Sequence record: SRR31156797_5759 | DNA: 33,308 bases | Strand: one strand, 5' to 3' | In this document: in pieces, positions 1,576 to 23,840 of the stretch | How the letters are laid out: every line of letters starts with the position of its first letter | Position numbering within the stretch: position 1 is the stretch's first letter | Made by a program: the position numbers and the translations under genes | Notes under the pieces: generated by a model | Seen by the model: the letters and a program-made list of their open reading frames with translations, nothing else | Databases searched by the model: none | What the model was told of the DNA's origin: nothing

Positions 1576-1980
1576 TTGTCTGAGTTGAAAAAACATATTA
1601 AAACAGAAATTGGGTCTGAACGGTGGTTTGGAATCGTTTTTGCCGCTATTTTTTTAGGCGGTGGTGTGTATCCTCTTTTCAAAGGGGAGGATATGCATTT
1701 ATGGTTTTTGGCTGGTGCTGTTGTTCTTTTATTGATTAGTGGTTTCGCTCCAACAATATTGTCTGGACCCAATAGGCTGTGGTTTAAGTTTGGCATGTTA
1801 CTTGGTGCCATTGTTTCTCCCGTTGTCATGACATTGATTTATTTTATGGTTGTTGTGCCTACTGGAGTTGTTGTCAGGATAATAGGAAAAGACCCCTTGC
1901 GCTTGAAAATAGATAAATATACTGAATCATATTGGGTTAGTCGTCCTCAGGAAGATTCTTCAATGAAAGATCAGTTTTAA
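1576..1980 (+). CDS. SxtJ-family small membrane protein
   Basis: 134 aa with 2-3 hydrophobic segments; motifs ERWFG, W.KFG.LLG.IVSP, YF...VPTG, KDPL, SYW and terminal QF. Sits next to a carbamoyltransferase. TTG start is uncertain. Confidence 0.8.
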   Translation: MSELKKHIKTEIGSERWFGIVFAAIFLGGGVYPLFKGEDMHLWFLAGAVVLLLISGFAPTILSGPNRLWFKFGMLLGAIVSPVVMTLIYFMVVVPTGVVVRIIGKDPLRLKIDKYTESYWVSRPQEDSSMKDQF

Positions 1981-1990
1981 GGACTATTCG

Positions 1991-2140
1991 ATGTCATTTT
2001 TAAAAGAGTTTTACCGTTTTTTAATGGTGAGAAAAAAATTTTGGATGGTACCTATTTTGTTAATGCTGGTACTTTTTGGAGGTCTAATTGTGCTGACCCA
2101 AGGTTCAGCAGTCGCCCCGTTTATTTATACTTTATTTTAA
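1991..2140 (+). CDS. 49-aa single-TM peptide, SxtK/DUF5989-like (absent from the ORF track)
   Basis: Manual translation MSFLKEFYRFLMVRKKFWMVPILLMLVLFGGLIVLTQGSAVAPFIYTLF*. AAGGA RBS at 1979-1983; fills the gap between the SxtJ-like gene and the carbamoyltransferase; RKK.W..P and SA.APFIYTLF are typical of the family. Confidence 0.88.
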   Translation: MSFLKEFYRFLMVRKKFWMVPILLMLVLFGGLIVLTQGSAVAPFIYTLF

Positions 2141-2159
2141 AGAGGATGATTTCGATTAA

Positions 2160-3995
2160 ATGACTGCAATTTTGGGAATATCGGCTTTTTACCATGACAG
2201 CGCAGCAGCCCTTATAATCAATGGGGAAATTATTGCTGCTGTACAAGAAGAGCGGTTTTCTCGAAAAAAACACGATGCCCGATTCCCATGTGATGCGATA
2301 AAATACGTCCTTTCCGAAGGCTGCTTAACATTGGGGCAAATCGATTTTGTTGTTTTTTATGATAAACCCTTTTTAAAATTTGAAAGATTGCTTGAAACAT
2401 ACGTGGCAACTGTTCCAAAAGGATTGAGATCCTTTTGTATGGCTATGCCGATCTGGCTTCGGGAAAAACTTTTTTTGAAGCATCAGCTTGTTAAAGAATT
2501 AGAACTCATTGATAAAAAATTTGATGTCAACTGCTTGAGATTCAGTGAACATCATTTTAGTCATGCCGCCAGTGCTTTCTATCCATCTCCATTCGAAGAC
2601 GCTCTTATTTTAACCCTTGACGGTGTCGGTGAATGGGCAACAACAACGGTTTCCATTGGAAAGGGATCTAAACTCAAGATTGTCAGGGAAATTAGATTCC
2701 CGCATTCACTAGGATTGCTTTATTCTGCATTCACTTATTACACAGGATTTCGGGTAAATAGCGGGGAATACAAACTTATGGGATTAGCGCCTTATGGGAA
2801 ACCAAAGTACGCAACCCTTATTTTAGATAAGCTTGTTGACCTAAAAGAGGACGGGTCTTTTTGGTTAGACCAATCGTATTTTAATTATGCCACTGGGCTT
2901 ACAATGACCAATAAAAAATTTTCCCGATTATTTGGTCAGTCTGTACGAAGGCCTGATTCAGATAGTTTAGAACAATTTCACATGGATATTGCTGCTTCTG
3001 TTCAGGCCGTGACAGAGAAGATAGTGCTAAAGATGGTTCGCTCCCTTTCTAAGGAGTTCGAGATCCCCAATCTTTGCATGGCGGGTGGTGTGGCGCTAAA
3101 CTGTGTTGCAAATGGAAAAATTTTAAACAAACAATATTTTCAGGACATCTGGATCCAACCGGCAGCGGGTGATGCCGGAGGGGCTATTGGCGCTGCTTTG
3201 GCGTTGTGGTTTGATGAATTGGAAAATACCCGCATTATTAAAAAACATGATTCAATGCGGGGGGCTTATCTTGGCCCTTCCTATGATAGAGAGTTTATTG
3301 AAAAAAGCTTTAGTTCAGCAGGGGCAAAATTTAAAATCCTTACCGATGAAGAGGTGCTGGAGCAAACAGCACAAGCCCTCAACCAAGGAAAAGCAATTGG
3401 CTGGTTTCAGGGGCGAATGGAATTTGGGCCCCGTGCACTTGGAGGGCGTTCCATTATAGGTGATCCTCGCTCAGAAACCATGCAGAAAATTCTTAATCTT
3501 AAGGTTAAGTATCGTGAAAGTTTTCGTCCCTTTGCCCCGTCTGTTCTGAGAGAAGATCTCTCAGATTGGTTTGAGCTTGATTATGATAGTCCGTATATGC
3601 TGTTGGTCGCAGGTGTTAAAGATAGCAAATGTTATCAGATGACTGCAGAGGAAAAGGCATTGTTTGGTGTTGATAAACTAAATATCAAAAGATCAGAGAT
3701 ACCGGCAGTGACACATGTGGATTATTCGGCACGTGTTCAGACCGTGCACAAGGAAACCAATCAAAAATATCATGCACTCATTAGTAGATTCAAAGAAAAG
3801 ACGGGCTGTCCGGTTATTGTGAATACCTCATTCAACGTACGCGGAGAGCCGATAGTCTGCACCCCTGAGGATGCATTCCGATGTTTCATGGGGACAGATA
3901 TTGATATGCTGGTGGTCGAAAATTTTGTTTTACAAAAAAATGAGCAAGATCAATCCTTGTCCTGTAGTTATAAAAATAAGTATGAGTTGGACTAA
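2160..3995 (+). CDS. O-carbamoyltransferase, NodU/CmcH/TobZ (SxtI-like) family
   Basis: ILGISAFYHDSAAAL, QEERFSR.KHD, EHH.SHAASAFY, DGVGE, GEYKLMGLAPYG, AGGVALNCVANG, QPAAGDAG, GRMEFGPRALG.RS, K.RE.FRPFAP, HVDYSARVQTV, NTSFNVRGEPIV. Confidence 0.95.
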   Translation: MTAILGISAFYHDSAAALIINGEIIAAVQEERFSRKKHDARFPCDAIKYVLSEGCLTLGQIDFVVFYDKPFLKFERLLETYVATVPKGLRSFCMAMPIWLREKLFLKHQLVKELELIDKKFDVNCLRFSEHHFSHAASAFYPSPFEDALILTLDGVGEWATTTVSIGKGSKLKIVREIRFPHSLGLLYSAFTYYTGFRVNSGEYKLMGLAPYGKPKYATLILDKLVDLKEDGSFWLDQSYFNYATGLTMTNKKFSRLFGQSVRRPDSDSLEQFHMDIAASVQAVTEKIVLKMVRSLSKEFEIPNLCMAGGVALNCVANGKILNKQYFQDIWIQPAAGDAGGAIGAALALWFDELENTRIIKKHDSMRGAYLGPSYDREFIEKSFSSAGAKFKILTDEEVLEQTAQALNQGKAIGWFQGRMEFGPRALGGRSIIGDPRSETMQKILNLKVKYRESFRPFAPSVLREDLSDWFELDYDSPYMLLVAGVKDSKCYQMTAEEKALFGVDKLNIKRSEIPAVTHVDYSARVQTVHKETNQKYHALISRFKEKTGCPVIVNTSFNVRGEPIVCTPEDAFRCFMGTDIDMLVVENFVLQKNEQDQSLSCSYKNKYELD

Positions 3996-4068
3996 GGCGC
4001 ATTTATCTGAGGAATAGAGGGCGATTTTTGGGATAGACTCTTGTTTATATGAGGAAACGTATAGCATA

Positions 4069-4968
4069 ATGAAAAAAAGATTTTGCTTAATGTGTGGCCA
4101 AGCTGTTTTAAACACGGGTAATTATTGCGGAGACGCTCAGGAAATATCTGTAGGAAAATGTGCCGGATGCGGCCTTGTTCAACTTATGGATTTTTCCCAT
4201 GTGTCATTGGATTATTATGCCAGCGATGATTATTTTCCCGTTGATACAGAGCTTGTTTGGGAGAGGGAGTCACATTGGAATACCAAAAGGATTTCTATTC
4301 TTGAACAGGCACTACCTAATCCGGAAAGTCGTCGTATACTTGATTTTGGTTGTGGTATTGGTGGGTTTCTTAAAAGGGCACAAAAAAAGTTTAAATTCGT
4401 ATGCGGTTATGATTTATCCGCTAAAGTTGTAAAACAACATATTGAGGACGGTTTCCCTTGTTTCTATAACCTTAGTGCAGTTCCAAAAAATATTGATACC
4501 ATCGTACTTTTTCATGTTCTTGAACATGTTGAGCGGCCTTGGGGGCTACTTAAAGAACTCAAAATTGGTTTTCCGAGTGTTGATCGTTTTATTATTGAGA
4601 CTCCATGCAATGAAGAATCTCTTATAAGTTTATTTGAAAATGAGGAATATTCAAGAAATCATTACAGCGTTGGACATCTATATTATTTTTCGAATGAAAC
4701 CCTTTCAAAAGTGGCCCAAAAAGCTGGCTTGAATGTGATTTTCAACTCTCAACTACAGCGTTATACGCTTGGAAATACATTGGGGTGGTTGCAAAATGGG
4801 CAAGGTGGTGGTCAAAATAAATGGTCAATTTTCAATTCAATAGAATTTCATTCTGTTTACGAGAAAATACTAGTGGAAGAAGGTGTTGCAGATTCCGTTT
4901 TTTTGATTTGCACACCAGAAAATAGTGCAAAATCAATTTGTTCTACGAAATCTGATAGTTTGCTTTAA
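4069..4968 (+). CDS. Class I SAM-dependent methyltransferase with an N-terminal Cys4 (zinc-ribbon-like) motif
   Basis: CLMC...CAGC, motif I ILDFGCGIGGFL, FHVLEHV..P, H.YYFS..TL. Confidence 0.85.
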   Translation: MKKRFCLMCGQAVLNTGNYCGDAQEISVGKCAGCGLVQLMDFSHVSLDYYASDDYFPVDTELVWERESHWNTKRISILEQALPNPESRRILDFGCGIGGFLKRAQKKFKFVCGYDLSAKVVKQHIEDGFPCFYNLSAVPKNIDTIVLFHVLEHVERPWGLLKELKIGFPSVDRFIIETPCNEESLISLFENEEYSRNHYSVGHLYYFSNETLSKVAQKAGLNVIFNSQLQRYTLGNTLGWLQNGQGGGQNKWSIFNSIEFHSVYEKILVEEGVADSVFLICTPENSAKSICSTKSDSLL

Positions 4969-5040
4969 TAGGGTTAAAAAGGTTTTCTACATTATGGATC
5001 TGGTGATTCAAGGAAATTTACTTGGCAAAGAGAGTCAAAT

Positions 5041-6054
5041 ATGAAAAATAGTTCATTTAAATTCAGGACGTTTTTAATAGCAGAGATGGCGTGTTCACAT
5101 GAAGGTGAAATGCAATTAGCAAAGGAAATTATTGATGCCGCTGCAGAAGCCAAGGCCGACGCCATTCAGTTTCAAATATGGTCTGTCGAGCATATGATGG
5201 CTCCCCAAAGGAAAGAGTTCAGCCTTCTGAAAAAAATAGAGTTTTCTAAAAAAGAGTGGATACATCTAAGAGACTATACTCGGTTGAATTTCCCCGAGAT
5301 GAAACTTTATGTTTGCGTATATGAACATAATAGCATTGATTTTATAGATAGCCTTGGTGTGGATGGTTATAAACTAAATTCATCTGATCTTTCCAATCCG
5401 CTTGTATTAAGTAAAATTGCAAAAACAGGAAAACCAATAAATTTAAGCGTTGGAGCTTCAACTCTTGGTGAAATACAAGCTGCGGTTGAGCAAATTCAAA
5501 AGATTTCTAACTCTAAGATAACATTAATGTATGGGCATCAAAGTTTCCCAACAGAACCACGCAATGTCAATTTAAGTTATCTCCCTAAAATAAAAAATCT
5601 TTTTGACTTGCCTGTGGGATATCAAGATCATTGTGCTGGAGATAAGGACTCGGCTTTCTGGCTTCCCGCTGTCAGTATGGGAATGGGAGTTGAGGTACTT
5701 GAGAAGCATATTACCCACGATAGGAGTCAAAAAGGCATTGATCACGAATCCGCACTTAACCCCGATGAATTTATCCAATTTGTTCAAATGGTTCGTCTTA
5801 TTGACATTGCCAAAGGTTGCTCAACACCCAAAGCTTTTTCTGAGGATGAAAAAAAATATAGGTGTTTTCAGAAAAAGAGTATCGTTACAGTTCAAGATCT
5901 TAAAAAGGGGCATATCCTTGAAGAAGGAAATCTTACATTCATGAGGGCTGAAAAATTAGGATTGTCTCCTGATCAAATTGGTGAAATTCTTGGTAAGAAA
6001 CTTAAATTAAATATTGGTGCATATGAAATTTTGAATCAAGGAGATTTGCAATGA
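5041..6054 (+). CDS. Divergent N-acetylneuraminate synthase (NeuB/SpsE) family protein with C-terminal SAF domain
   Basis: IAE...SHEG, ADAIQFQ, YKLNSSDL, GYQDH, EKHIT, GIDH..AL.P.EF, C-terminal KKSIV...DLKKG SAF-like region. Confidence 0.85.
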   Translation: MKNSSFKFRTFLIAEMACSHEGEMQLAKEIIDAAAEAKADAIQFQIWSVEHMMAPQRKEFSLLKKIEFSKKEWIHLRDYTRLNFPEMKLYVCVYEHNSIDFIDSLGVDGYKLNSSDLSNPLVLSKIAKTGKPINLSVGASTLGEIQAAVEQIQKISNSKITLMYGHQSFPTEPRNVNLSYLPKIKNLFDLPVGYQDHCAGDKDSAFWLPAVSMGMGVEVLEKHITHDRSQKGIDHESALNPDEFIQFVQMVRLIDIAKGCSTPKAFSEDEKKYRCFQKKSIVTVQDLKKGHILEEGNLTFMRAEKLGLSPDQIGEILGKKLKLNIGAYEILNQGDLQ

Positions 6055-6803
6055 AGTCTGCGATATTAATTACTGCAAGGTTAAAGTCGACCCGCCTTCC
6101 TTTAAAGGTTATCAAACCTATTCATGGGCGTCCAATGATTCGACACATGCTGGATAGATTGAAACTTGCAAAAATACCGGAAAAAATTATCATTTGTACA
6201 TCACCTGTTGCACAAGATGACCCGTTGGAAGAAATAGCAATTCAAGAAGGTGTTGAATGCTTTCGGGGAGATCCAGAAGATGTCCTTTTGCGGCTGAAAG
6301 ATGCAGCTGAAAAGTATGGTGTTGATACAATAATTAACTGTACTGCGGATAATCCCTTTGTCGATCCAGATTATATAGATAAGCTTTACGAGTTCCACGT
6401 AAACAAAAAGAATGATTTTACAAAGATAAACGGTCTTCCTTTTGGTGTTTTTTCATACGCGATTTCATTTGATGCAATGGTTAAAGCTTGTGAAATAAAA
6501 AATGAAAATGATACTGAAGTTTGGCACGGTTATTTTATGGATACAGGTTTTTTTAAATGGAGCGCTCTTGAGGCCTCGGATCCGTCTGTTGTGTGGCCTG
6601 ATCTTCGCCTTACTGTTGATACACCGGAAGATTTTGCAATGGTCACAAAGATTTTTGATGAATTGTACAACCCCGGATGTGTTTTCCCTTTAACTGAGAT
6701 AGTTAAACTGTGCCGCAATAAACCTGATATTCCAGCGATGAATAGTGAAATAATTCAGAAAAAAGGTCTGCCGATTAAAATTAAGGAAGTAAAAAATGAC
6801 TGA
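6051..6803 (+). CDS. Cytidylyltransferase, SpsF/CMP-Kdo/CMP-NeuAc synthetase-like
   Basis: ITARLKSTRLPLK, DDPL, FRGDPEDVL.R, TADNPFVDP, LRLTVDTPEDF. ATGA overlap with the upstream gene. Confidence 0.87.
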   Translation: MKSAILITARLKSTRLPLKVIKPIHGRPMIRHMLDRLKLAKIPEKIIICTSPVAQDDPLEEIAIQEGVECFRGDPEDVLLRLKDAAEKYGVDTIINCTADNPFVDPDYIDKLYEFHVNKKNDFTKINGLPFGVFSYAISFDAMVKACEIKNENDTEVWHGYFMDTGFFKWSALEASDPSVVWPDLRLTVDTPEDFAMVTKIFDELYNPGCVFPLTEIVKLCRNKPDIPAMNSEIIQKKGLPIKIKEVKND

Positions 6804-7851
6804 TCACATCTCTATTTTTGGTAATAAAATAGGCCCTGGTAGGCCTGTTTTTATTATTGCCGAAATTGGGGTGAACCATAACGGTAATATTGATTTGGCA
6901 AAGAGGATGATTAGAAAAGCTATCCAGTGCGGTGCGGACTGTGTTAAGTTTCAAACGTTTAAAGCGGACCAAGTTGTGACAGAAAATGCACCCAAAGCTT
7001 ACTACCAGCTTCAGACAACCTCTCCAGAGGAATCTCAACTAAAAATGCTCAAAACCTTGGAGATGTCTTTTGACGATTTCGCTGAAATAATAGATTATTG
7101 CCATAAGCATAAAGTTTTGTTTATGTCTACACCCTATAATCAAGAGGATGTCGATTTATTGGACAGATTGGGTGTTGAAGCATTCAAATTAGCGTCGATC
7201 CATGCAGCAGAACCCTCATTTGCAAAATATGTAGCTCAAAAGGGGAAACCTTTAATCATGTCAACTGGAATGGCAACCTTATCAGAAGTTGATGAAGCTG
7301 TTTGGGCTATGCGGGAGACCGGGAATAACGATATCGCGCTTTTACAATGCACCACTAACTATCCATCACTGCATGAAGATGCGAATCTACTCTCCATGAA
7401 GACGATGGGAGATGCCTTTGATGTGATTGTGGGCTATTCTGACCATACTGTTGATGACATTGCCTGTATTGCTTCAGTTGCTTTGGGTGCAAGTATTATT
7501 GAAAAGCATTTTACCTTGGACAAGTCATTACCTGGGCCCGATCAATCCACATCAGCCAATCCTGAAGAGTTCAGTAGAATGGTCCGAAATGTACGTAAAG
7601 CAGAATTGGTACTCGGTTCAAAAATAAAAGGCCCTTGTAAAATCGAAAAAGAGAATGCTTTAGGGATGCGCCGTAGCATTGTTGCTGGAGTTGATATACC
7701 GAGGGGTAAGATTTTAGAGTCAAATATGTTGGCTTTTAAAAGACCGGCCTCAGGGATTCCGGCTAAATTTATTGATACAATATCAGGAAAAAAAGCTCAA
7801 AGAGACATTGAGGCTGGGATGATACTTAACTGGGCCGATATTGGGGATTAA
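6796..7851 (+). CDS. neuB: N-acetylneuraminate/nonulosonate synthase (NeuB family) with SAF domain
   Basis: FIIAEIGVNHNG, GADCVKFQTF, STPY, LQCTTNYP, GYSDHT, IEKHFTLD..LPGPD, RRSIV, KRPASGI. Confidence 0.93.
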   Translation: MTDHISIFGNKIGPGRPVFIIAEIGVNHNGNIDLAKRMIRKAIQCGADCVKFQTFKADQVVTENAPKAYYQLQTTSPEESQLKMLKTLEMSFDDFAEIIDYCHKHKVLFMSTPYNQEDVDLLDRLGVEAFKLASIHAAEPSFAKYVAQKGKPLIMSTGMATLSEVDEAVWAMRETGNNDIALLQCTTNYPSLHEDANLLSMKTMGDAFDVIVGYSDHTVDDIACIASVALGASIIEKHFTLDKSLPGPDQSTSANPEEFSRMVRNVRKAELVLGSKIKGPCKIEKENALGMRRSIVAGVDIPRGKILESNMLAFKRPASGIPAKFIDTISGKKAQRDIEAGMILNWADIGD

Positions 7852-8483
7852 TGGCACGTTATAAATCTTTGATCATTATTGGTGCTGGTGGCCATGCCCG
7901 GGTAATTGCCGATACCGTTCTTGCAATGGGAATATTTTTAAAAGGAATTATAGATATTGAATACCATGGGCAAAAAGAAAGGATCATGGGATATCCAGTG
8001 CTTGGAGGATTAGACTACCTTGGACAGTTTGGATCAAATGAACTGGCTTTAGCAATTGCCCTTGGAGATAATGAAAAACGGAACCATTATTATACCTCAT
8101 TCAAGGAAAAGGGCTTTTCTTTTCCACCCATTATCCATCCTACGGCAACAATATCAAAATTTTCAACCATAGGTGAAGGAACCTTTATTAATGCGGGTGT
8201 GATTATCAATTCTGGTGTGGAATTACATCCAAATTGTATAGTTAATACTGGTTCCATTCTTGATCATGAAGTATCTGTAGGTATGAATTGTCATATTGCT
8301 CCTGGGGTAAAGATTGGAGGAAGAGTTGTGATAGGGAAAAATTCTTTTATTGGTATGGGAGCAAGTATCATAGACAGTATAAAAATAGGTCAGTCTGTTG
8401 TCATTGGCGCTGGTAGTGTTATCATAGACAACATTGAATCGGGCTCGACCTATGCAGGTGTTCCCGGAAAAAGAATCAAATGA
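7851..8483 (+). CDS. NeuD/PglD-family sugar O/N-acetyltransferase
   Basis: IIGAGGHA, ALGDN..R, IIHPTA, hexapeptide repeats, NTGSILDHE, GAGSVI, GVPGK. Confidence 0.9.
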   Translation: MARYKSLIIIGAGGHARVIADTVLAMGIFLKGIIDIEYHGQKERIMGYPVLGGLDYLGQFGSNELALAIALGDNEKRNHYYTSFKEKGFSFPPIIHPTATISKFSTIGEGTFINAGVIINSGVELHPNCIVNTGSILDHEVSVGMNCHIAPGVKIGGRVVIGKNSFIGMGASIIDSIKIGQSVVIGAGSVIIDNIESGSTYAGVPGKRIK

Positions 8484-9334
8484 TTTATATTTCGTCATCA
8501 TGTATAAAAACGGATCTGATAAAAGATGCGGTTATGGTTCTTGCCCGAGAAGGCTTTAGAAATATTGAGCTGTCTGGGGGAACAAAATATTATTCTAATT
8601 GGGCAGACGATCTTAAAGAATTAAAAAGAGAGTTTGATTTAAATTATTTGGTTCATAATTATTTCCCTCCTCCTAAAAAAGACTTTGTTCTAAATTTGGC
8701 GTCAATGGATGAAAATATTTATACTAAAACCCTGGCCCATCTTGAGGCCGGTTTAAAATTCACACAAGTTTTAGGGGCGAGACAGTTCAGTTTGCATGCC
8801 GGGTTCTATGTCGACCGGCCTGTCTGCGAAATAGGGCGGGTATTTTCTCACTCAAGTTTATATGACAGGGAAAAAACCTTTGATCTTTTTTGCAAAAGAT
8901 TTGATTTTCTTAGCAACAAATATAATGACATTGAAATTTACATAGAGAATAATTGTTATTCTAGTTCCAATTTTTCAGTATATGGTCGTAAAATCCCTTT
9001 TATGCTTTTAGATTCCGAAGACTATTATGAGTTGAAAGCGAAAACTAATTGTAATCTTCTACTTGATCTTGGTCACCTGATTGTTAGTGCAAAGACATTA
9101 GGATTAGACTTTGAAAAAGAGTTTGAACTTTTATTTGAGGAATCAAATTACATTCATCTCAGTGATAATGACGGATTCCATGATATGAACCTTGGTTTTT
9201 CAGAATCATCTGATTTGGCTAAGTTTTTAAAAAAATTTAATTGGTGTAATAAAGTTACCACTTTGGAAGTTTATGAGGGAATTGACAAGCTGAAAGAAAC
9301 CTATAATGCAGTATTGAGCATAAAAGAAAAATAG
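8480..9334 (+). CDS. Xylose-isomerase-like/AP-endonuclease-2 TIM-barrel protein (putative sugar isomerase/epimerase)
   Basis: Metal-ligand pattern IELSGG, VHNYFP, LHAG, YIENN, LLDLGHL, IHLSDNDG..D, TLEV. Confidence 0.72.
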   Translation: MIYISSSCIKTDLIKDAVMVLAREGFRNIELSGGTKYYSNWADDLKELKREFDLNYLVHNYFPPPKKDFVLNLASMDENIYTKTLAHLEAGLKFTQVLGARQFSLHAGFYVDRPVCEIGRVFSHSSLYDREKTFDLFCKRFDFLSNKYNDIEIYIENNCYSSSNFSVYGRKIPFMLLDSEDYYELKAKTNCNLLLDLGHLIVSAKTLGLDFEKEFELLFEESNYIHLSDNDGFHDMNLGFSESSDLAKFLKKFNWCNKVTTLEVYEGIDKLKETYNAVLSIKEK

Positions 9335-9339
9335 ATATT

Positions 9340-10809
9340 ATGAGCAACGATTTTATGAGCATGAAGGAAAACGTTCCGAATCTAACGTTACCAGACACCA
9401 GCCCGGTACGTGATGTCTTAAAGACAATTGATAGAGGCGGTTTAGGGGTTGCGTTGCTTGAAGATGCTGACACATGTTCTTTTCGAGGGTTGGTAACCGA
9501 TGGTGATGTGAGACGAGCATTGCTTCAAGGGATCGATTTGAATTCTCCGGCATCAGCCGTATCACATCCTGAAACGGTGACTGCGGGTATTGATACCCCA
9601 ATTGATGAAATAGCAAAAAAATTCACGGAAAAAGTGCGTCTTATCCCGCTTTTGAACAAACAAAACAGGGTCGTGGATATTTCTGTTTTTGATTATAAAA
9701 TGCATATTCCAGTGGCATCCCCCCTATTCTCTGGGAATGAATTAAAATATGTGAGTGAATGTATACTGACCGGATGGGTTTCCTCAACTGGGAAATATGT
9801 CTCCGAATTTGAACATGTATTTGCCAAATTTTGTAATACAAACTTTGCTGTTGCAACAAGTAGCGGTACAACGGCATTGCATTTGGCATTATTGGCCATA
9901 GGAGTTGGCCCTGGTGATGAGGTCATTGTTCCTTCGTTCACGTTTATTTCCACTGCCAATGCTGTTAGATTTGCCGGGGCTACTCCAGTTTTTGTTGATT
10001 GCGAAAGTGCAACATGGAATATTGATCCCTTGGGATTTAAAGATGCCATTACCGAGAAAACAAAAGCAGTTATTCCAGTTCATCTATATGGCCATCCTTC
10101 AGACATGGACCCAGTAATCGAGATTGCCCAAGAGAATAATATTAAAATAATAGAGGATGCTGCTGAAGCCCATGGGGCGTTATATAAAGGTAGGAAAGTA
10201 GGATCCCTTGGTGATATAGGGATTTTCAGTTTTTATGGAAATAAAACCATAACCACTGGTGAAGGTGGAATGGTAGTAACGGATGATCAATACTTGGTTG
10301 AAAAAATACGTATTCTCAGAGACCATGGAATGGATCCCAACAAAAGATATGAACACTCCGTTTTAGGTTATAATTATAGAATGACCAATATCCAAGCCGC
10401 ATTGGGAGTGGCACAAATGGAGCAAATTGACCAAATAATAGATCAGAAAAGAAAGAATGCCTCACTCTATAAAAAAGGACTGGAAACAATACCAGGGATA
10501 ACGCTTCCTCCTGAAAAAAAATGGGCAAAAAATATTTTTTGGTTGTATTCAATTTTAGTTGATGAGAATGAATTTGGAATGTCGGCATCTGAACTTGGGA
10601 ATCAGTTGTTAAAGATGAATATCGACACAAGGCCTTTGTTCCCACCTATTCACCACCAACCTATTTATGATACCAAACAATCCCTACCCGTCTGTGAAAT
10701 GCTATCTTCCAGAGGGCTAAGCTTGCCTTCTTCGGTTCGTTTGGCCAAAAATGAAATAGAATCTGTTGTGGTAGCTATTAAGTCGATATGTAAAGCAGGA
10801 GAGAACTAA
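9340..10809 (+). CDS. CBS-domain pair fused to a DegT-family (perosamine-synthase-like) PLP aminotransferase
   Basis: N-terminal ~120 aa with GLVTDGDVRRALL and LIPLLN...VVDI (CBS). Then HIPVASP, GWVSS.G, SSGTTALHLAL, VHLYGHP, EDAAEAHG, FSFYGNKTITTGEGG, GYNYRMTN, LSLPS. Confidence 0.88.
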   Translation: MSNDFMSMKENVPNLTLPDTSPVRDVLKTIDRGGLGVALLEDADTCSFRGLVTDGDVRRALLQGIDLNSPASAVSHPETVTAGIDTPIDEIAKKFTEKVRLIPLLNKQNRVVDISVFDYKMHIPVASPLFSGNELKYVSECILTGWVSSTGKYVSEFEHVFAKFCNTNFAVATSSGTTALHLALLAIGVGPGDEVIVPSFTFISTANAVRFAGATPVFVDCESATWNIDPLGFKDAITEKTKAVIPVHLYGHPSDMDPVIEIAQENNIKIIEDAAEAHGALYKGRKVGSLGDIGIFSFYGNKTITTGEGGMVVTDDQYLVEKIRILRDHGMDPNKRYEHSVLGYNYRMTNIQAALGVAQMEQIDQIIDQKRKNASLYKKGLETIPGITLPPEKKWAKNIFWLYSILVDENEFGMSASELGNQLLKMNIDTRPLFPPIHHQPIYDTKQSLPVCEMLSSRGLSLPSSVRLAKNEIESVVVAIKSICKAGEN

Positions 10810-10842
10810 AAATGGACACCAGCTCATTTTTTTTAAAGTAAA

Positions 10843-12081
10843 ATGGAAGAATATCCTATCGTGAATAAAAGTTTTGTAGACATGAAGAAATTGCGTATTT
10901 CCAAAAATGCTATAAATGCCTTTTTTGTTATTTCAGGGTTACTACTTATCCACCAGTTTCTTTTCGAGGGTTGGCTTCCCGCAATTACCATCCTATTTTT
11001 TACTTTTATTGCATGCCTTTTATTGCAAAAATTTATTTTTGATAGAGATGTAATTCTGATTGTTTCTATGTTTAGCGTTTTTATATTATTTCTAATCATC
11101 CGAATTGAGCCTGTTTTTTATGATAACATCACTTATCTAAAATTGAAGCCAAAAGTAAATATAATAGTTTCTTCTCTATTATATTTTTCCACCTTTTTCT
11201 TTGCGTATATTTATGGGTATAAAAATAAGCATCTTTTTAAATTTTCAGGATACTTAAGCCTGTTTTACATGTGTGCATTCACAGTTCGAATTTTAAGTGA
11301 TTTCTTAACAATAAGGAATGGAAATAACTTATGGAGCGGTTTTCTTGTAATGATGACGACCCCCTTTATGTTGTTTGTTTTCAGAGAAAAACGTACTTAT
11401 GTACCATTCCTTTTTTTGTTTTTTATGGTTTTTACGTTTTCAATAAGTTCACGAGGAACTTTTCTAAGTTTAGCAGTGTTTTTTTTATCGTACTGCCTGT
11501 ATCCTTTTTTTGTAAAACATAAACGTCTGTATCAACTTATCTTCCCGTTTTTTATCCTATTTATTGGCGGTGGGATGTTGATTTATATTATTTCTTTTCA
11601 ATATCAATGGGGGCACACTCTCGATGAGTTAAGTCGTAGTGTTTTTGATAAATCGCTTTATTCTGGCCGCCATTATATGTGGAAGGAATTGTTAGAAATT
11701 ATAAACGAAAAACCCTTGGTGGGGCACGGTGCGTTCCAATTAAGTCAATATTTTGTCTCTCCTTCACATGATTGGAGAAACCTCAGCTCCCATAACTTGT
11801 ATTTAGAGATACTCGTGAGAGGCGGTGTTGTTGGTTTGTCTTTGTTATTAATCGTTTTTTACATGCTCTGGATAAAGCTTTATGATCATAATTGTTCTTT
11901 TTATGCCAGAGTAGGGGCCGCTTCATTGCTAGGCCATTTGTTCCATAATTTTTCAGTGCAATACTTATTAACTCAAAATATGGTCGGCAATACGCTAATT
12001 TGGTTTTTTTGGGGAGCATGTTGCGGGCATGTTAGTTCATATAAACTTCAGCAAAAAGTCAAAATGAGATCCTTCCTTTAA
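10843..12081 (+). CDS. O-antigen ligase/polymerase (Wzy_C/WaaL/O-OTase) family membrane protein
   Basis: About 10-12 hydrophobic segments; SSRGT; periplasmic-loop signature SGRHYMW.....I.EKPLVGHG...SHNLYLEILVRGGVVGL. Confidence 0.8.
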   Translation: MEEYPIVNKSFVDMKKLRISKNAINAFFVISGLLLIHQFLFEGWLPAITILFFTFIACLLLQKFIFDRDVILIVSMFSVFILFLIIRIEPVFYDNITYLKLKPKVNIIVSSLLYFSTFFFAYIYGYKNKHLFKFSGYLSLFYMCAFTVRILSDFLTIRNGNNLWSGFLVMMTTPFMLFVFREKRTYVPFLFLFFMVFTFSISSRGTFLSLAVFFLSYCLYPFFVKHKRLYQLIFPFFILFIGGGMLIYIISFQYQWGHTLDELSRSVFDKSLYSGRHYMWKELLEIINEKPLVGHGAFQLSQYFVSPSHDWRNLSSHNLYLEILVRGGVVGLSLLLIVFYMLWIKLYDHNCSFYARVGAASLLGHLFHNFSVQYLLTQNMVGNTLIWFFWGACCGHVSSYKLQQKVKMRSFL

Positions 12082-12230
12082 CGAGGGCATGGCGGGCTAA
12101 TACGAATGGTTCAATAGAGCCAAGAACAAAACGATCTGGGTTCCAGAATCTACAGACATAGATTTATAAATAAGTTTAATTTTGAGAGTGATAAGGTTAA
12201 TTTAAAGCCTTTTTCGTTTAAAGGATTGCT

Positions 12231-13379
12231 ATGAGTTCCTTTTCTGCGTTATCGAGTAAAGCTAAATTGCTGGTAATTGTTTTTTTCCTCGTGGTAGGTA
12301 TTTGTACCGTCGATATGTTTTACATTCTTTATAGATTTTACGATATAAATACAAATAAAGAACGAGTGCAGTTTTTTAATGAGTTAACTCATCATGAGTA
12401 TATCCCCGCTTCGTCATTTGTAAAGCAACCATCAAATGGTGATACTTACGAACCTGTACGCGTTGACATTAACAGTTTGGGGATAAGAGGGCCGGAACTC
12501 GGGGAAAAGAAAACATACCGGGTTTTAATGCTTGGAGATTCTTTTGTTCAGGCAGATGAAGTTCGATTTGAAGATACTTTCGGAGAACGGCTTAACAAGA
12601 AGTTCAAGGGGAAGATAGAATTTATTTCTCACGGCATTGGCAGTTGGTCTCCAACTACAGAATTGTCCTGGCTCTACCATAGGGGATTGCTTCTAAAACC
12701 TGATGAGGTTAATCTTTTCCTTTGTATCAATGATTTTGGAGGGGACACCAAATATAGGAACTTGGCGACATTCAATGGTGATGGGATTCCGGTTAGGTAT
12801 GACATAAGTAAAGAGGCAACTTCCATGAATCGGGTACTACGAGATAGCTCTATAATATACTCGGTTTTTACTTTTGCCAAATCCTTTTTTAAAAAGAAAC
12901 AAAAAGTGACAGGTGAAAGAAGAACTTTTTCTGATGATATTTTACTCTTTTGTACGAATGAGAAAGGAAAATGGCCTGATAATTATAGAGCATGGTATGG
13001 GAACACAATTAAATCACTTGTTGGTATGCACTCCCTTTTAAGCAAAAATCATATTGAATTGAATGTTTATTTAGTTCCCATGGGGTATTCTTGGACTGAT
13101 GAAATACTCCTAATCCGAAATCATCACGAAGAATATAAGAAGCTGAAAGATTGGGCTATATCCCAAAAGAAGCTTGAAGAAATATTGTATAACGACTTAA
13201 ACGAGTTAGGTATTAATTTCATAAAATTGGAATACCTTTTTGATAGCTTCAAAAAACGGTTCAAAAACCAGAAACTTTTTAATGGTTCTGATGGGCATTG
13301 GAATAAAAATGGGCATATGGTCCTTTCCCAGTTTTTTGAAGAATACTATAATACCAAGAATAGATTATCAGAAAGATAA
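12231..13379 (+). CDS. Membrane-anchored SGNH/GDSL-fold protein (AlgJ/AlgX/SxtL-like)
   Basis: N-terminal TM LLVIVFFLVVGIC, INSLGIRG, block I LGDSF, block II GIGSWS, block III CINDF, block V DGHWNKNGH. Confidence 0.82.
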   Translation: MSSFSALSSKAKLLVIVFFLVVGICTVDMFYILYRFYDINTNKERVQFFNELTHHEYIPASSFVKQPSNGDTYEPVRVDINSLGIRGPELGEKKTYRVLMLGDSFVQADEVRFEDTFGERLNKKFKGKIEFISHGIGSWSPTTELSWLYHRGLLLKPDEVNLFLCINDFGGDTKYRNLATFNGDGIPVRYDISKEATSMNRVLRDSSIIYSVFTFAKSFFKKKQKVTGERRTFSDDILLFCTNEKGKWPDNYRAWYGNTIKSLVGMHSLLSKNHIELNVYLVPMGYSWTDEILLIRNHHEEYKKLKDWAISQKKLEEILYNDLNELGINFIKLEYLFDSFKKRFKNQKLFNGSDGHWNKNGHMVLSQFFEEYYNTKNRLSER

Positions 13380-14426
13380 ATGATGAAATATATATTCTGT
13401 CAGTCGTATCTTCATCTTGCTGGAGGGCTTTCGATTATTGAAAAAAGTCTTCAGGAAAATAGAGAAGATTTTATAGTTGTTACCGCGAACAGGGATATTA
13501 TTACACTCATAACTCAACTATATGGGAGTAACAAAATCTATCAGATTCCTTCATACAGCATGTGTACGCCAATATCAAAAAGGTTTGCCTTATTTTTCCC
13601 TTTAATTTTATTCTGGAGGTTAAAATTTAAATTTTTGGCTCGCAGGATAACCGGAGACGAAATTTATTTTTTTATTGAAGGTGGGGCGTATATTATGCTG
13701 TCATTTATAAAAGAACTCAGCAAGAATAATTCGGTGGTGTATCATCGTTGCAATGAAGCCGTTTACACTCTAACTAAAGAAAATTTAAGGCAAAGGTTAA
13801 ACCGGTTCATTATTAAAAACTTTCATTCTGTAGATGTTGAATTTGTAGCATTAGGAAAATCTAGAGGTTTTCGGCCAACACGGAGATACTTTAAAGATAT
13901 ATCTGCTCATGAGAAAGAAATACCGGTGCAGTATCCTTTGATTTCTAATAGAATTTCACAATGCGGTATGGTAGGTGCAGATATATTACTATTGGGATCG
14001 AAAATGAGTATTGAAATTTTTTGTAAAATTGAAAAGAGTATTAAACTCTATAATTCCCTTTTAGTAAAATTTAATGAATACGATGTGAAGATAAAACATC
14101 ACCCAATGCATAACATGAGGTTGCCTATAGAAGAAAAGTATGAAGAAATACCGCCTTACTTTCCAGGGATGTTTATAATGGGATTATTCAGAATCGTTGT
14201 TGGCTATGCATCTGCTGCCCTATATGAAGCCGCAAATATTGGATGTGTTGCTATTTCTCTCTTGAACTACTTACCAGCGAATGATGAGAATGAAAAACAA
14301 GATAGAAGAATATATCTGGAGGCAAATCTTAATGAAGGGAAAATGATTTATTATCCGGAGAGTATGGGTGAAATATTGAAATTATGTAATACTCATCTGA
14401 TAGATAATTTTGAAACAAAAAACTGA
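13380..14426 (+). CDS. Hypothetical protein, possible nonulosonate (sialyl-type) glycosyltransferase
   Basis: N-terminal YIFCQSYLHL, central FFIEGG, C-terminal IKHHP and VVGYASAALY resemble the HP and S-S/T-A-L motifs of bacterial CMP-sialic acid transferases; nonulosonate genes are nearby. Confidence 0.45.
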   Translation: MMKYIFCQSYLHLAGGLSIIEKSLQENREDFIVVTANRDIITLITQLYGSNKIYQIPSYSMCTPISKRFALFFPLILFWRLKFKFLARRITGDEIYFFIEGGAYIMLSFIKELSKNNSVVYHRCNEAVYTLTKENLRQRLNRFIIKNFHSVDVEFVALGKSRGFRPTRRYFKDISAHEKEIPVQYPLISNRISQCGMVGADILLLGSKMSIEIFCKIEKSIKLYNSLLVKFNEYDVKIKHHPMHNMRLPIEEKYEEIPPYFPGMFIMGLFRIVVGYASAALYEAANIGCVAISLLNYLPANDENEKQDRRIYLEANLNEGKMIYYPESMGEILKLCNTHLIDNFETKN

Positions 14427-18908: not shown

Positions 18909-20123
18909 GTGAAATCAATGAATTTGTCAAAAAACATTGTAATAATTGAATTTTATGCTCATGAATCATATTTGAGGTCTCTTTTGGAAATATTCAGAAA
19001 TGATGATGTAACATTGATGGTTTCTGAATATTTCCATGAGAAATTTATCAGGGACCCTGAGTATTATAGTAAAGTAAAAATAATAGTTAAAAAGGATACT
19101 CAATCTCCCCAGTCCTTTTTCAAAAATAACCGTAAGATTATACAGATGGCGGATATCCTTTTTTTGAATACATTTTGTCGTGAGTATACGTACATTGAGG
19201 AGTATCTTAATAGAAAAAATGTGATCTTAACGTTGCATAATTTGAATGATTTTTTTGGTAATTATAATTTAACATATGGAAAATACCTTTCCTGTACCAT
19301 TGAGGAGAAGTCAAAAAACGCCTTGTTTTTATTTGGTCGCTATTTGATCCATTGTTTAAAAGGGGGTGTTTCAATAATAAGAGAAGCGAAGTATAAATAT
19401 AAAGCTGTAAAATTAGCATCAATTTTTTGTGTATACCACCAAAATATGGCTGGTAAAATAACAAAAGCCTATCCCAAGATTCAACAGATTATTTTACCCT
19501 TTAAATTACCTGATAAACATATTCCCCCTCCATCGCTTGAGCCTTGCCCCTTAGGACTGGCAATGATCGGAAATGTTGACCCGACAAGAAAGGATTACTC
19601 GGGTGTTATAGACGCTCTTGAAAAGGCAGAATTACAAGGACCGGTCAAGCTCTCTATTTTGGGCCGGTGCGAAAAAAGAGAGTTTGCCAAATTATTACAT
19701 TCAAAAATTAATGGGTTAAAAAATAAAAATCTTGAAGTCTGCTTTGAAGATCCCATAGAAAGGATACCTGACGATGGAATAAAGGCCAGGATGAGGAATA
19801 TTCATTATTTAGTCGCTGCCACAAAAATAGAGATAAAGGTTCGATTATCCTTAGAGAGGTATGGCGAGACAAAGGCCACCGGCTGTGATTTTGATGCCCT
19901 GTCATTTAATCGAATTGTTTTGAATAATGATAAATATGAACCCGTAAACTATCTGTCCGATTTTACACTTAGTTATTCAGATTATGATCATTTTGTAGAG
20001 TTAATAAATTCTTCTTTTTGTAACAATTTTATAAAAAAACAATATGACAGGATAGAGAATATTTGTGTGGATTCTCTTAAGAAATCTTTTAGAAAAGAGG
20101 TCTTTAAGAAAGTCAAGATATGA
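18909..20123 (+). CDS. Hypothetical protein, probable divergent GT-B glycosyltransferase
   Basis: 404-aa soluble ORF; TLHN in the N-half, MIGNVDPTRKDY (GT4-like G...RK), YGETKATG. Operon context. Confidence 0.5.
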   Translation: MKSMNLSKNIVIIEFYAHESYLRSLLEIFRNDDVTLMVSEYFHEKFIRDPEYYSKVKIIVKKDTQSPQSFFKNNRKIIQMADILFLNTFCREYTYIEEYLNRKNVILTLHNLNDFFGNYNLTYGKYLSCTIEEKSKNALFLFGRYLIHCLKGGVSIIREAKYKYKAVKLASIFCVYHQNMAGKITKAYPKIQQIILPFKLPDKHIPPPSLEPCPLGLAMIGNVDPTRKDYSGVIDALEKAELQGPVKLSILGRCEKREFAKLLHSKINGLKNKNLEVCFEDPIERIPDDGIKARMRNIHYLVAATKIEIKVRLSLERYGETKATGCDFDALSFNRIVLNNDKYEPVNYLSDFTLSYSDYDHFVELINSSFCNNFIKKQYDRIENICVDSLKKSFRKEVFKKVKI

Positions 20124-21058
20124 CAATGAATAAGTTTTTAGATATGACAAAGAATGAATTTTTAGATAAATTGCAAATACGTATCGAAGCCTTTTTTGAA
20201 ATGCTAAAGTTTACCGGTTCAAGTAAAAGAAATCTGAATTTCTGTGAGTTTAAAAGGCTTCTAAAAGATTCTGATACATTTCCTCCTGTTTTTTTCCTTT
20301 CGACCGGCCGTTGTGGGACTAAGTTTTTTACAAATTTGTTAAGGACACATCCTCTTTTTGATGTCCATCATTCAACACAGCCAGAGTTAATCTGTGAGAG
20401 TAGGGATGCCTATTGCCTGTATAAAAGAAATGGGATGCAAGATCAAATAGTCAACCAAGCCTTGTCTTCTGTAATAAGTGCATCACGGGATAAACTTTTA
20501 TACTCAGCATGTAGACACAATAAAGTGTATATTGAAACGAACAATAAAGTTGCTTTTTTAGCCCCTGCTTTGAGAGCATATTTTCCCCATGCAAAGTTTG
20601 TTCATATTTATCGTCATCCCGGTGAATTCATTCGGTCCGGTATTAGACGTGGTTGGTATATTAGTGAGTCAATACACGAGTTAGGAAGGATCATTCCAAC
20701 AGAAAAGGATCATGTTGCATTCTCAAATTGGAGGGATTATGGACAATCTGAAAAAATTGCATGGCTATGGTTTGAAACAAACCGGTTTATCGAAGACTTT
20801 TTATCTATCATCCCAAGTGACTCGTATTTTAAATTTAATTTTAGTCAGATAACGGATGTTCAAAAAACATTAGATCTTTTGACATTTTGTGGGGCTGACG
20901 ATTTTTACAAAAAGAAATTGCAGAGTGCCACTCTCAAGCCTGTTAATGTTCAAAAAGAAGGTTCTTATCCTCTGTATGAGAACTGGGATCAAACTGAAAA
21001 AGATAAGATTTTAAAGATATGTGGTGGGCTTTCAATGAAATATGGGTTTCAATTATAG
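20120..21058 (+). CDS. PAPS-dependent sulfotransferase family protein
   Basis: 5'-PSB-like VFFLSTGRCGTKF and 3'-PB-like FPHAKFVHIYRHPGEFIRS. Confidence 0.78.
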   Translation: MTMNKFLDMTKNEFLDKLQIRIEAFFEMLKFTGSSKRNLNFCEFKRLLKDSDTFPPVFFLSTGRCGTKFFTNLLRTHPLFDVHHSTQPELICESRDAYCLYKRNGMQDQIVNQALSSVISASRDKLLYSACRHNKVYIETNNKVAFLAPALRAYFPHAKFVHIYRHPGEFIRSGIRRGWYISESIHELGRIIPTEKDHVAFSNWRDYGQSEKIAWLWFETNRFIEDFLSIIPSDSYFKFNFSQITDVQKTLDLLTFCGADDFYKKKLQSATLKPVNVQKEGSYPLYENWDQTEKDKILKICGGLSMKYGFQL

Positions 21059-21082
21059 CTTGCCTGACTGGTAAACACTTGT

Positions 21083-22468
21083 ATGCAGATTATTGAATAT
21101 AAGGCTTTTCGGTATTATCGCCAGGATAACGCTTTTTTAAGTGTAAAAGAAGTTACATATTCTCTTAAACGATTTTGGTGTTTGGTGGGAGGAGGGGGGG
21201 ATTGGAAAGGCTCTCCGGTTATAAATTTTTTATCAGTGTCTAAAAATTCAGTTCAGGAAATGCTTGATTTGTCGAACAACTCTCTTTCTTGGGTCCCTAT
21301 GAGTTTTGCCTTTCCTGGGGGGAACAATGTCTTTGATTGTGATAGGTATAAGTTACCATCAATTTGTAGGATAGCTAATGATAGTGAAATGCAATGTGAT
21401 GAAGTGGCTTTTTTCCCTTTAGATTTAATATCGGCAACCTTTTTTATGTTGTCCAGATATGAAGAGTATTGCCATGATGGTGAAACCGATATCCATGGCA
21501 GATTCCGACTTGAGGATAGTTTTGCCTATAAGCAAAATTTTCACCAGAGACCCATAATTGATGAATGGGCCTTAGCTGTGAGAAAATGGTTGGCTTTTTT
21601 ACATCCTCAATGGGAGCCAATAATACCTAATCATCAACCTTTTATAACTCACGATATTGATATTCCCATTAGATATTCATCGGTGAGATATATTTTAAGA
21701 GCCATTGGAGGGGAGTTAATACAAAGAAGTCGTAATCCCATAAAGGCATTGGGTGTTTTTATAGAAGGGGTTACCTCGCTTTTTAACGTTTATAAAGATC
21801 CGTATGTTCGTAAATTAAAAGAATTGCTATATCTGGAGCAGTTATATAAATATCACTCAGCGTGTTTTATTATGGCTTCGGAGCCCGGTAAGTTTGATAG
21901 AGGCTACCGTTGTGATGACCCCAAAGTAAAGGTTGTCCTGGAAATAATTGATGGTATGAAAGCAGAGTTAGGCTGGCACCCAGGGTATAGAACTTTTAAT
22001 AATGAAGAAATTTTTCAAACTGAAAAACACAAAATGGATGCAGTGCTCGAAATTGACAGATATGGCGGGCGCCAGCATTATTTGCGTTGGAAAGCTGGTG
22101 TTAGCTGGGAGACTTGGGAAAAGTACGGATTAATTTATGATTCAACATTAGGCTGGGCAAACTCTATTGGATTTAGATGCGGAACCTGCCATCCATATCC
22201 ATGTTTTTCGATTAAAGAACAAAGGACCCTATCTTTAATTGAACGGCCCTTGATTATTATGGATACAGCAGCGGTTCAAACTTCTGATACAATGGACGGG
22301 ATTGAAAAATCTATTATTGATGTTCTGCAAAGGGTTCGACTGGTAAACGGAGAGGCGGTAATTTTACTTCACAATAGTTTTCACAATAATTTTGTTGAAG
22401 AAATTATATATAAAACTCTTGGTATGTCTGAAATTCACTTAAGATACAAAAATACGAGGGTTATATGA
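21083..22468 (+). CDS. Polysaccharide deacetylase (NodB-like fold) domain protein
   Basis: D...ATFFMLSRYEE, D.HGRF, RPIIDEW, ITHDID, ELGWHPGY, GGRQHYLRW, YDSTLG, GFRCGTC.PY, PLIIMD, LLHN. Confidence 0.8.
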   Translation: MQIIEYKAFRYYRQDNAFLSVKEVTYSLKRFWCLVGGGGDWKGSPVINFLSVSKNSVQEMLDLSNNSLSWVPMSFAFPGGNNVFDCDRYKLPSICRIANDSEMQCDEVAFFPLDLISATFFMLSRYEEYCHDGETDIHGRFRLEDSFAYKQNFHQRPIIDEWALAVRKWLAFLHPQWEPIIPNHQPFITHDIDIPIRYSSVRYILRAIGGELIQRSRNPIKALGVFIEGVTSLFNVYKDPYVRKLKELLYLEQLYKYHSACFIMASEPGKFDRGYRCDDPKVKVVLEIIDGMKAELGWHPGYRTFNNEEIFQTEKHKMDAVLEIDRYGGRQHYLRWKAGVSWETWEKYGLIYDSTLGWANSIGFRCGTCHPYPCFSIKEQRTLSLIERPLIIMDTAAVQTSDTMDGIEKSIIDVLQRVRLVNGEAVILLHNSFHNNFVEEIIYKTLGMSEIHLRYKNTRVI

Positions 22469-23831: not shown

Positions 23832-23840
23832 AGGTAAATC

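Follow-up and report, generated by a model that had tools for sequence, protein, structure and literature searches.

A candidate tyrosine-carbamoyl relay encoded by SxtJ, DUF5989, carbamoyltransferase and SGNH genes in a surface-polysaccharide cluster

Introduction

How could an enzyme that works in the cytoplasm and consumes ATP supply a chemical group to a polymer lying outside the membrane? This question is raised by sequence record SRR31156797_5759, a stretch of 33,308 nucleotides that is called the window here and was analysed at its full length. An earlier note on this DNA had proposed that four of its genes form a relay by which a glycan is carbamoylated after export, independently of any MBOAT enzyme and with SxtJ taking the MBOAT role. 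The four genes were confirmed on the + strand, three by Pfam matches and the fourth by alignment: an SxtJ-family small membrane protein of 134 aa (J; 1576-1980, PF19588), a DUF5989/SxtK-like microprotein of 49 aa (K; 1991-2140, PF19451), a two-domain O-carbamoyltransferase of the NodU/CmcH/TobZ/SxtI type with 611 aa (CT; 2160-3995, PF02543 and PF16861), and an SGNH-fold protein of 382 aa with an N-terminal membrane anchor (12231-13379), which was recognized from alignment invariants and an AlphaFold2 model. With doubt and confidence in equal measure, we regard as the best explanation of these genes a tyrosine-carbamoyl relay that would lead from CT through Tyr46 of K to an extracytoplasmic SGNH transferase and on to an envelope glycan.

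To our knowledge, post-export acylation of bacterial surface polymers so far runs via MBOAT or AT3 (Acyl_transf_3) membrane enzymes that load a tyrosine. In the passages of the source cited here, the name 'acyl shuttle' is given to FXYXXF, both in DltX and at the C-terminus of PatA-type MBOATs, where the acylated Tyr donates its group to a Ser in the SGNH partner; the PatA of N. gonorrhoeae ends in FIYANF, and the last elements of PatA are a peripheral cytoplasmic helix, a transmembrane (TM) helix and the motif (PMC12148441). For the saxitoxin genes, the parts of the published description used here give sxtI with 1839 bp, sxtJ with 405 bp and sxtK with 165 bp, and list the GDSL-type sxtL right after sxtK; its product, a GDSL lipase, is annotated as a decarbamoylase (PMC2679770). 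In the corresponding excerpts on the crocagin pathway, CgnD is a slow leader-peptide hydrolase whose cluster also encodes the carbamoyltransferase CgnI (PMC10070186).

Results and Discussion

In the window, the genes matching PF02543 plus PF16861, PF19588 and PF19451 are adjacent, share one orientation and each exceed their Pfam cut-off, which marks them as an SxtI/SxtJ/SxtK-type module; the gaps of 10 nt from J to K and 19 nt from K to CT are operon-like. To follow K elsewhere, one genome per species was scanned with a K alignment, and the best 80 of 586 confirmed places were taken as K loci. J adjoins K in 73 of these 80 loci and CT does so in 77, nearly always in the order J-K-CT, and judged by this synteny the three genes are a fixed module. 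When the 772 neighbouring open reading frames (ORFs) of the 80 loci were clustered, the largest cluster was the SGNH type of the window (24 ORFs in 20 loci, mostly adjacent), and with profile matches and two Lipase_GDSL_2 clusters included, 29 of the 80 loci have an SGNH or GDSL gene no more than a few kb away. The nearest relative of the window SGNH protein (47% identity) is encoded 30 nt after CT in Desulfospira joergensenii (locus L044), where the cassette J-K-CT-SGNH sits behind a nonulosonic-acid gene set similar to that of the window; identity between the two loci is 73% for CT, 73% for K and 43% for J.

The architecture of such cassettes was viewed in 13 further regions and in 10 regions of a second sample, which were picked because their K and SGNH matches are close and which therefore show architectures and not frequencies. 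K stands within ~2 kb of SGNH in all 13 of the former, accompanied by J and CT in 11, and all 10 of the latter are contiguous cassettes. With S for the SGNH gene, the orders seen were J-K-CT-S, S-J-K-CT, CT-J-K-S, CT-S-K-J and CT-S-K. In three genomes, a DUF5989-like gene (K') forms the arrangement K'-S-MBOAT beside J-CT, and another K is not present; in loci L085, L086 and L087 (genomes G305, G310 and G202) the DUF5989-like gene heads the SGNH-MBOAT operon, and J and CT make up a separate adjacent operon with no peptide between them. The clustering of the cassette despite the shuffling of its gene order argues for a shared function, and since K' is co-transcribed with SGNH and not with J-CT, the tie of K is specifically to SGNH. 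On this genomic association, the four genes very probably constitute one functional module. The same idea in the earlier note is thus borne out by the synteny of J-K-CT, by SGNH as the commonest neighbour, by cassettes of several orders, by the K'-SGNH sub-operons and by the genome profiles described below.

Loci of other kinds were seen in Pelagibacteraceae. Two of them (L071, L080) have an opposite-strand SGNH gene and a gene of 323-338 aa (cluster c19, no Pfam match) between J and K. In many others (L008, L013, L019-L021, L024) the trio stands among genes for a thiamine pyrophosphate (TPP) enzyme, the transhydrogenase PntAB, EF-P and TerC. Because these surroundings are housekeeping genes and not a glycan cluster, the acceptor in such loci may be something other than O-antigen or capsule.

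K covers profile positions 1-49 of 49 of PF19451 (E 2.8e-25), and its full sequence, MSFLKEFYRFLMVRKKFWMVPILLMLVLFGGLIVLTQGSAVAPFIYTLF, begins with a basic, amphipathic N-segment, continues with a single TM helix and finishes in a tail without charge. This tail, ...QGSAVAPFIYTLF, closes with the six residues FIYTLF, which fit the FxYxxF acyl-shuttle motif with Tyr46 at its centre. A word-indexed search gave 3565 relatives of K at E <= 0.001, and the best 120 are 73-92% identical to it; F-[IV]-Y-x-x-F occupies the exact C-terminus in 121 of 121 sequences (these 120 and the query). Since F44, Y46 and F49 never vary among the 119 sequences that are 49 residues long, the motif is no chance match. 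In a library reduced to 50% identity, 3050 representatives match K at E <= 0.001, and among the best 150 of them 122 end in FxYxxF and 17 more carry the motif followed by an extension. The remaining 11 are without the motif; most of these align only to K residue 45-48, and one ends in MIYTMF. Some of the K homologues listed are named Alphaproteobacteria or Pelagibacter. As sequence motifs go, the parallel with DltX and PatA that the earlier note had drawn is real.

Lysine and arginine residues average 4.8 in the N-segment of K and its relatives and 0.01 in the 14-residue tail. Because the N-segment is basic and the tail uncharged, an N-in/C-out topology is predicted, by which the Tyr tail would lie on the outer face of the membrane. 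Compared with the published passages on the Dlt, Pat and Alg systems, K is likewise a single-TM element with FxYxxF at its C-terminus, its extracytoplasmic side being deduced from charge; it is free-standing as DltX is, and it has the same build of helix, TM helix and motif as the last elements of PatA. The MBOATs found beside K loci end in ...SQGSSAxFIYFDF and K ends in ...TQGSAVAPFIYTLF. The final 60 residues of 21 MBOATs all end in FxYxxF, and in hhalign these tails align with K so that TM helix and tail are in register (30 columns, E 4.6e-4, probability 33%). This alignment is suggestive of homology between K and MBOAT tails and supports it weakly; K itself belongs to the Pfam family DUF5989, which sets it apart from the acyl-shuttle proteins. 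The link between CgnD and crocagin had also raised the idea that K is the precursor of a RiPP, a peptide made on ribosomes and modified after translation. It was rejected, as K is a conserved TM microprotein with 73-92% identity among its best 120 homologues.

The supposed recipient of the group is the SGNH protein. It has no Pfam match of its own at E <= 0.01; 26 of its 60 homologues carry PF16822 (ALGX). In an alignment of 18 sequences (A1), the invariant positions are G102-D103-S104-F105, N167-D168, D354, H356 and W357, from which a putative catalytic triad of Ser104 (GDSF), Asp354 and His356 (DGHW) can be named, with N167-D168 as block III. The AlphaFold2 model (pLDDT 87.6) has an SGNH fold with a helix at residues 9-41, hydropathy indicates a single N-terminal hydrophobic helix, and all 106 PDB matches of the model in Foldseek at E <= 0.001 are SGNH/GDSL proteins. 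Fold, block I GDS, block III N and block V D-x-H, the features of the superfamily, are thus all present. As in the Dlt, Pat and Alg systems, this would be a membrane-anchored SGNH partner with Ser, His and Asp, genetically coupled to the tyrosine-tailed element and placed in an envelope-glycan locus.

Two comparisons bear on its catalytic role. The A1 profile matches the solved structures of AlgJ (4o8v, E 2e-4) and of B. cereus PatB1 (5v8e, E 6e-4), with AlgX at E 0.24, and by this profile the window SGNH type appears to be related to AlgJ and PatB1, which are transferases partnered with MBOATs. AlgJ, AlgX, PatB and DltD are absent among the structural matches listed for the model, and the best solved structure is CgnD (8a2n; Z 21.6, rmsd 3.1 A over 242 residues, 15% identity), with generic SGNH enzymes at about 14. 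In a tree of 53 rows, built by a quick method, deep, with 12 of 50 inner branches starred and hence used for the nearest neighbours of the window only, the window protein pairs with that of L044 (support 100), and the other members of the five-row group are all K-adjacent. In the same tree, K-linked and MBOAT-linked SGNH proteins separate only partly. A complex prediction for K and SGNH, made without controls or custom alignments, gave ipSAE values of 0.11 and 0.10 relative to a mark of 0.34 and speaks neither for nor against binding.

We propose that the SGNH protein is the extracytoplasmic carbamoyl acceptor and transferase. It might instead be a hydrolase which removes the carbamoyl group for editing, with K carrying carbamoyl-Tyr or the glycan being carbamoylated in some other way. 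The SGNH fold serves mostly hydrolysis; CgnD, to which the model comes closest among solved structures, is reported as a slow hydrolase from a pathway that also holds a carbamoyltransferase, and SxtL, the GDSL lipase encoded beside sxtK, is a proposed decarbamoylase. The sequence profile nevertheless points to the MBOAT-paired transferases, the same SGNH type stands beside an MBOAT in 15 of the 16 loci examined in genomes that lack K, and a futile pair of enzymes that add and remove one group, conserved in one operon across phyla, would be less economical. We therefore consider a decarbamoylase quite unlikely. CgnD differs in that it is soluble and cleaves a leader peptide, and neither SxtJ nor DUF5989 is reported for the crocagin cluster in the passages cited (PMC10070186).

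A related observation concerns the crocagin pathway, which has both CgnD and a carbamoyltransferase, and CgnD is the protein to which the window SGNH is structurally nearest, well above generic SGNH enzymes. Because that pathway also holds a carbamoyltransferase, a partnership of this SGNH branch with carbamoyltransferases may be more general. Since the combination of carbamoyltransferase and SGNH protein recurs in soluble settings (crocagin, and sxtL in saxitoxin clusters), the SGNH protein may be a hydrolase, and the pairing may reflect a two-step carbamoyl transfer rather than a membrane matter.

Genome profiles were drawn up for two samples, 401 genomes from the class of G005 and 251 genomes from the phylum of G001, with SGNH called by the A1 profile; counts are given as SGNH-positive genomes over all genomes of a given K/MBOAT class, and G037 enters the first sample as a single count without K or SGNH and with MBOAT. 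Among the 401 genomes, 75 have K, 46 SGNH and 131 MBOAT. SGNH was found in 9/31 genomes with K and without MBOAT, in 26/44 with both, in 11/87 with MBOAT only and in 0/239 with neither. The 251 genomes include 54 with K, 54 with SGNH and 68 with MBOAT, and the same four classes give 16/25, 26/29, 8/39 and 4/158. In both samples, genomes with DUF5989 or MBOAT account for nearly all occurrences of the SGNH type. It was detected in 35/75 genomes with K and 11/326 without it in the first sample, and in 42/54 and 12/197, respectively, in the second; the corresponding odds ratios between K and SGNH are 25 and 54, statistics that are uncorrected for phylogeny or genome size. K and SGNH lie within 5 kb on the same contig in 13/35 and 18/42 of the genomes that have both. 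The phylogenetic profiling that had been recommended at the outset thus came out on both sides: SGNH follows K or MBOAT, and on the other hand K-positive genomes are enriched in MBOAT and many of them have no SGNH match.

Several results weigh against the coupling of K and SGNH and against its independence of MBOATs. SGNH was not found in the flanks, as fetched, of 51 of the 80 K loci, and 40/75 and 12/54 K-positive genomes have no SGNH match in a search in which only 4 to 7 candidates were scored per genome and known cases were missed; G005, for instance, was overlooked, and yet two weak SGNH matches are present in its locus L078. In the window itself the SGNH gene lies 8.2 kb away from CT. 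MBOAT was detected in 26/35 and 26/42 genomes that have both K and SGNH, and it is enriched in K-positive genomes with odds ratios of 3.9 (401 genomes) and 4.7 (251 genomes). MBOATs with their own tyrosine tail share the cluster with the trio in L001, L046 and L084-L089. Finally, G055 has two K' genes, SGNH and MBOAT, and neither J nor CT was found in that genome. Its locus L084 (G055:C22, 9075-12671) begins with tandem divergent DUF5989-like peptides (tails ...QGTAWSPFLYAVF), followed by SGNH and by an MBOAT with an FFYFDF tail. Because G055 combines K', SGNH and MBOAT where J and CT were not found, K-type peptides may serve MBOAT systems too.

These cases would fit an ordinary MBOAT-SGNH O-acetylation in which the SGNH protein, and perhaps K, takes part, with the MBOAT encoded elsewhere in the genome and the link to CT due to shared glycan loci. 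For the organism of the window, the absence of MBOAT covers the ORFs of the window, a scope that leaves room for this explanation: a Pfam scan of its 30 + strand ORFs gave no MBOAT match (PF03062) at E <= 0.01, in agreement with the earlier note, and none to Acyl_transf_3 (AT3) either. Whole genomes speak against it. Of five whole genomes that combine J-K-CT with a neighbouring SGNH gene, three yielded no MBOAT and two have it elsewhere; in Desulfospira the single MBOAT is on a different contig from the J-K-CT-SGNH cassette, in which SGNH follows CT after only 30 nt. In addition, no MBOAT match was obtained in 9 and 16 genomes of the two samples, altogether 25, that have both K and SGNH, and in 73 to 77 of 80 loci K comes with J-CT. 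We consider such an MBOAT-dependent acylation very improbable. The claim of independence from MBOATs stands for the three whole genomes and the 25 sampled ones. It is not general, because most genomes with K and SGNH have an MBOAT, several in the same cluster.

The donor side of the relay would be made up of J and CT. J matches PF19588 at E 4.5e-11 (43.8 bits, cut-off 24.4) and is hydrophobic over three stretches (about 17-36, 39-65 and 68-105), and its C-terminal tail is conserved as ...YW...QF. In 50 sequences, its conserved residues are S14, F18, G19, L62, N66, W69, G73, P82, P95, D106, Y119, W120, Q133 and F134; a conserved His or Cys was not found in this alignment, which leaves an MBOAT-like catalytic role of J unsupported. 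The AlphaFold2 model of a J-K fusion ORF (L027, 197 aa) reached a pTM of 0.42, at which the arrangement of J and K is unreadable, and a search of the ESM Atlas with SxtJ returned SxtJ clusters only. The part of the original idea that put SxtJ in the place of the MBOAT is accordingly not supported, and from its conserved residues J is read as an adaptor rather than as an MBOAT-like catalyst. J and K are fused in a single table-11 ORF in L027 (9557-10150) and L119 (10861-11448), both from metagenome assemblies in which sequencing errors are possible. If the fusions are real, the C-terminus of J and the N-terminus of K are on the same side of the membrane. Several further J-K 'fusions' among cluster representatives were left uncounted, as QFW at the junction looks like TGA read-through by gene callers.

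CT has full-length matches to both domains of the NodU/CmcH/TobZ family, Carbam_trans_N (PF02543, E 9.5e-110) and Carbam_trans_C (PF16861, E 3.3e-76). Hydropathy gave zero hydrophobic 19-residue windows, indicating a soluble protein. Because it scores 150.2 bits with the NodU equivalog model NCBIfam NF041651, for which the cut-off is 1000, CT is, by this model, a member of the family and not a NodU ortholog. It differs from the NodU, CmcH and TobZ enzymes in its coupling to J and K.

A soluble, ATP-requiring CT and an SxtJ whose conserved residues include none that look catalytic would also suit a simpler arrangement, in which SxtJ and DUF5989 are a scaffold that tethers or activates CT at the inner face, a lipid-linked or nucleotide sugar is carbamoylated directly, and the SGNH protein has nothing to do with this, being a glycan O-acetyl esterase or transferase. 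The 51 of 80 K loci without SGNH nearby agree with such an arrangement. It would leave unexplained why an invariant FxYxxF stands at the C-terminus of K, on the predicted outer face, why K'-SGNH sub-operons and shuffled four-gene cassettes exist, and why the SGNH type is nearly absent from genomes that have neither K nor MBOAT (0/239 and 4/158). A scaffold of this kind appears unlikely to us.

The tyrosine-carbamoyl relay can be set out as four steps. In the first, which is known chemistry of the family, the soluble CT would use carbamoyl phosphate and ATP in the cytoplasm to make carbamoyl-adenylate. In the second, SxtJ would hold CT at the membrane, and CT would carbamoylate Tyr46 in the FIYTLF tail of K, whose build is that of DltX and of the two final helices plus tail of PatA/AlgI-type MBOATs. 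In the third, the tail of K at the membrane's outer face would hand the group to Ser104 of the anchored SGNH protein, and in the fourth this protein would pass the carbamoyl group to a sugar hydroxyl. Serine hydrolases readily accept carbamoyl from aryl carbamates, for which reason a transfer from Tyr-O-carbamate to Ser is plausible; the turnover of the carbamoyl-serine enzyme onto a sugar hydroxyl is less certain. The weakest step is the second, as CT is cytoplasmic, the Tyr is predicted outside and no conduit between them is evident. Either the tail could reach the cytoplasmic CT through SxtJ, or it could be loaded before the short C-tail is translocated. The functional coupling of the four genes is supported by their genomic association, while the chemical steps are proposals.

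Compared with the Dlt, Pat and Alg systems, the relay would differ in its donor module, which consists of the soluble ATP-dependent CT and the 134-aa SxtJ instead of an MBOAT, and in its group, which would be carbamoyl and not acyl, with no tunnel across the membrane known. The comparison with sxtI-sxtJ-sxtK was made from published descriptions: the three Pfam families are the same and the sizes nearly so, whereas the sxt substrate is a small alkaloid and not a glycan, and the order is I-J-K-L instead of J-K-CT (PMC2679770, in the parts cited here). An extension of the relay to roles for sxtJ, sxtK and sxtL would rest solely on the published adjacency of these genes.

The long ORFs of the window are all on the + strand and together form a surface-polysaccharide cluster; ORFs of at least 100 aa on the - strand stay short, with no more than 182 aa, and overlap genes of the + strand. 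The cluster encodes DegT-type aminotransferases, two NeuB-like synthases, a CMP-sugar-type cytidylyltransferase, PglD-like acetyltransferases, a Wzy_C protein, glycosyltransferases, an ABC exporter, a sulfotransferase, a HisH/HisF-like pair, a Bac_transf initiating transferase and a Polysacc_synt_2 dehydratase. Probably, the glycan targeted is this cluster's own product, a polysaccharide containing nonulosonic acid. Two of its ORFs, at 13380-14426 (348 aa) and 18909-20123 (404 aa), have no Pfam or NCBIfam match. Positions 20120-24971 hold genes for the sulfotransferase, a DUF7033/VimE-like deacetylase, the HisH/HisF-like pair and a PP-loop protein, and owing to these the glycan of the window is probably decorated heavily, beyond any carbamoyl group.

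Conclusion

In the literature searched, where subscription journals are poorly covered, nothing was found that links DUF5989/SxtK to tyrosine shuttles, a carbamoyltransferase to an acyl shuttle or, among the papers listed, DltX to carbamoyl groups. A carbamoyl relay would probably be a route not yet described, which differs from the tyrosine-shuttle/SGNH systems in its donor enzyme and its group. With slightly more doubt than confidence, we suggest that DUF5989/SxtK is a free-standing carbamoyl-tyrosine shuttle, which would take the group from an SxtJ-docked carbamoyltransferase to a periplasmic SGNH protein along a third post-export route, independent of MBOAT and AT3. If this is true, the logic of the tyrosine shuttle would extend to a new chemical group, carbamoyl, and to a new donor enzyme, and an explanation would be at hand for the way in which a cytoplasmic enzyme that depends on ATP modifies a polymer outside the membrane. 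A role would be given to two widespread families of unknown function, of which DUF5989 was detected in 75/401 and 54/251 genomes. Surface polymers would then have a third route of decoration in roughly one in five sampled genomes of two bacterial groups, and the roles of sxtJ, sxtK and sxtL and of their natural-product relatives would be reopened.

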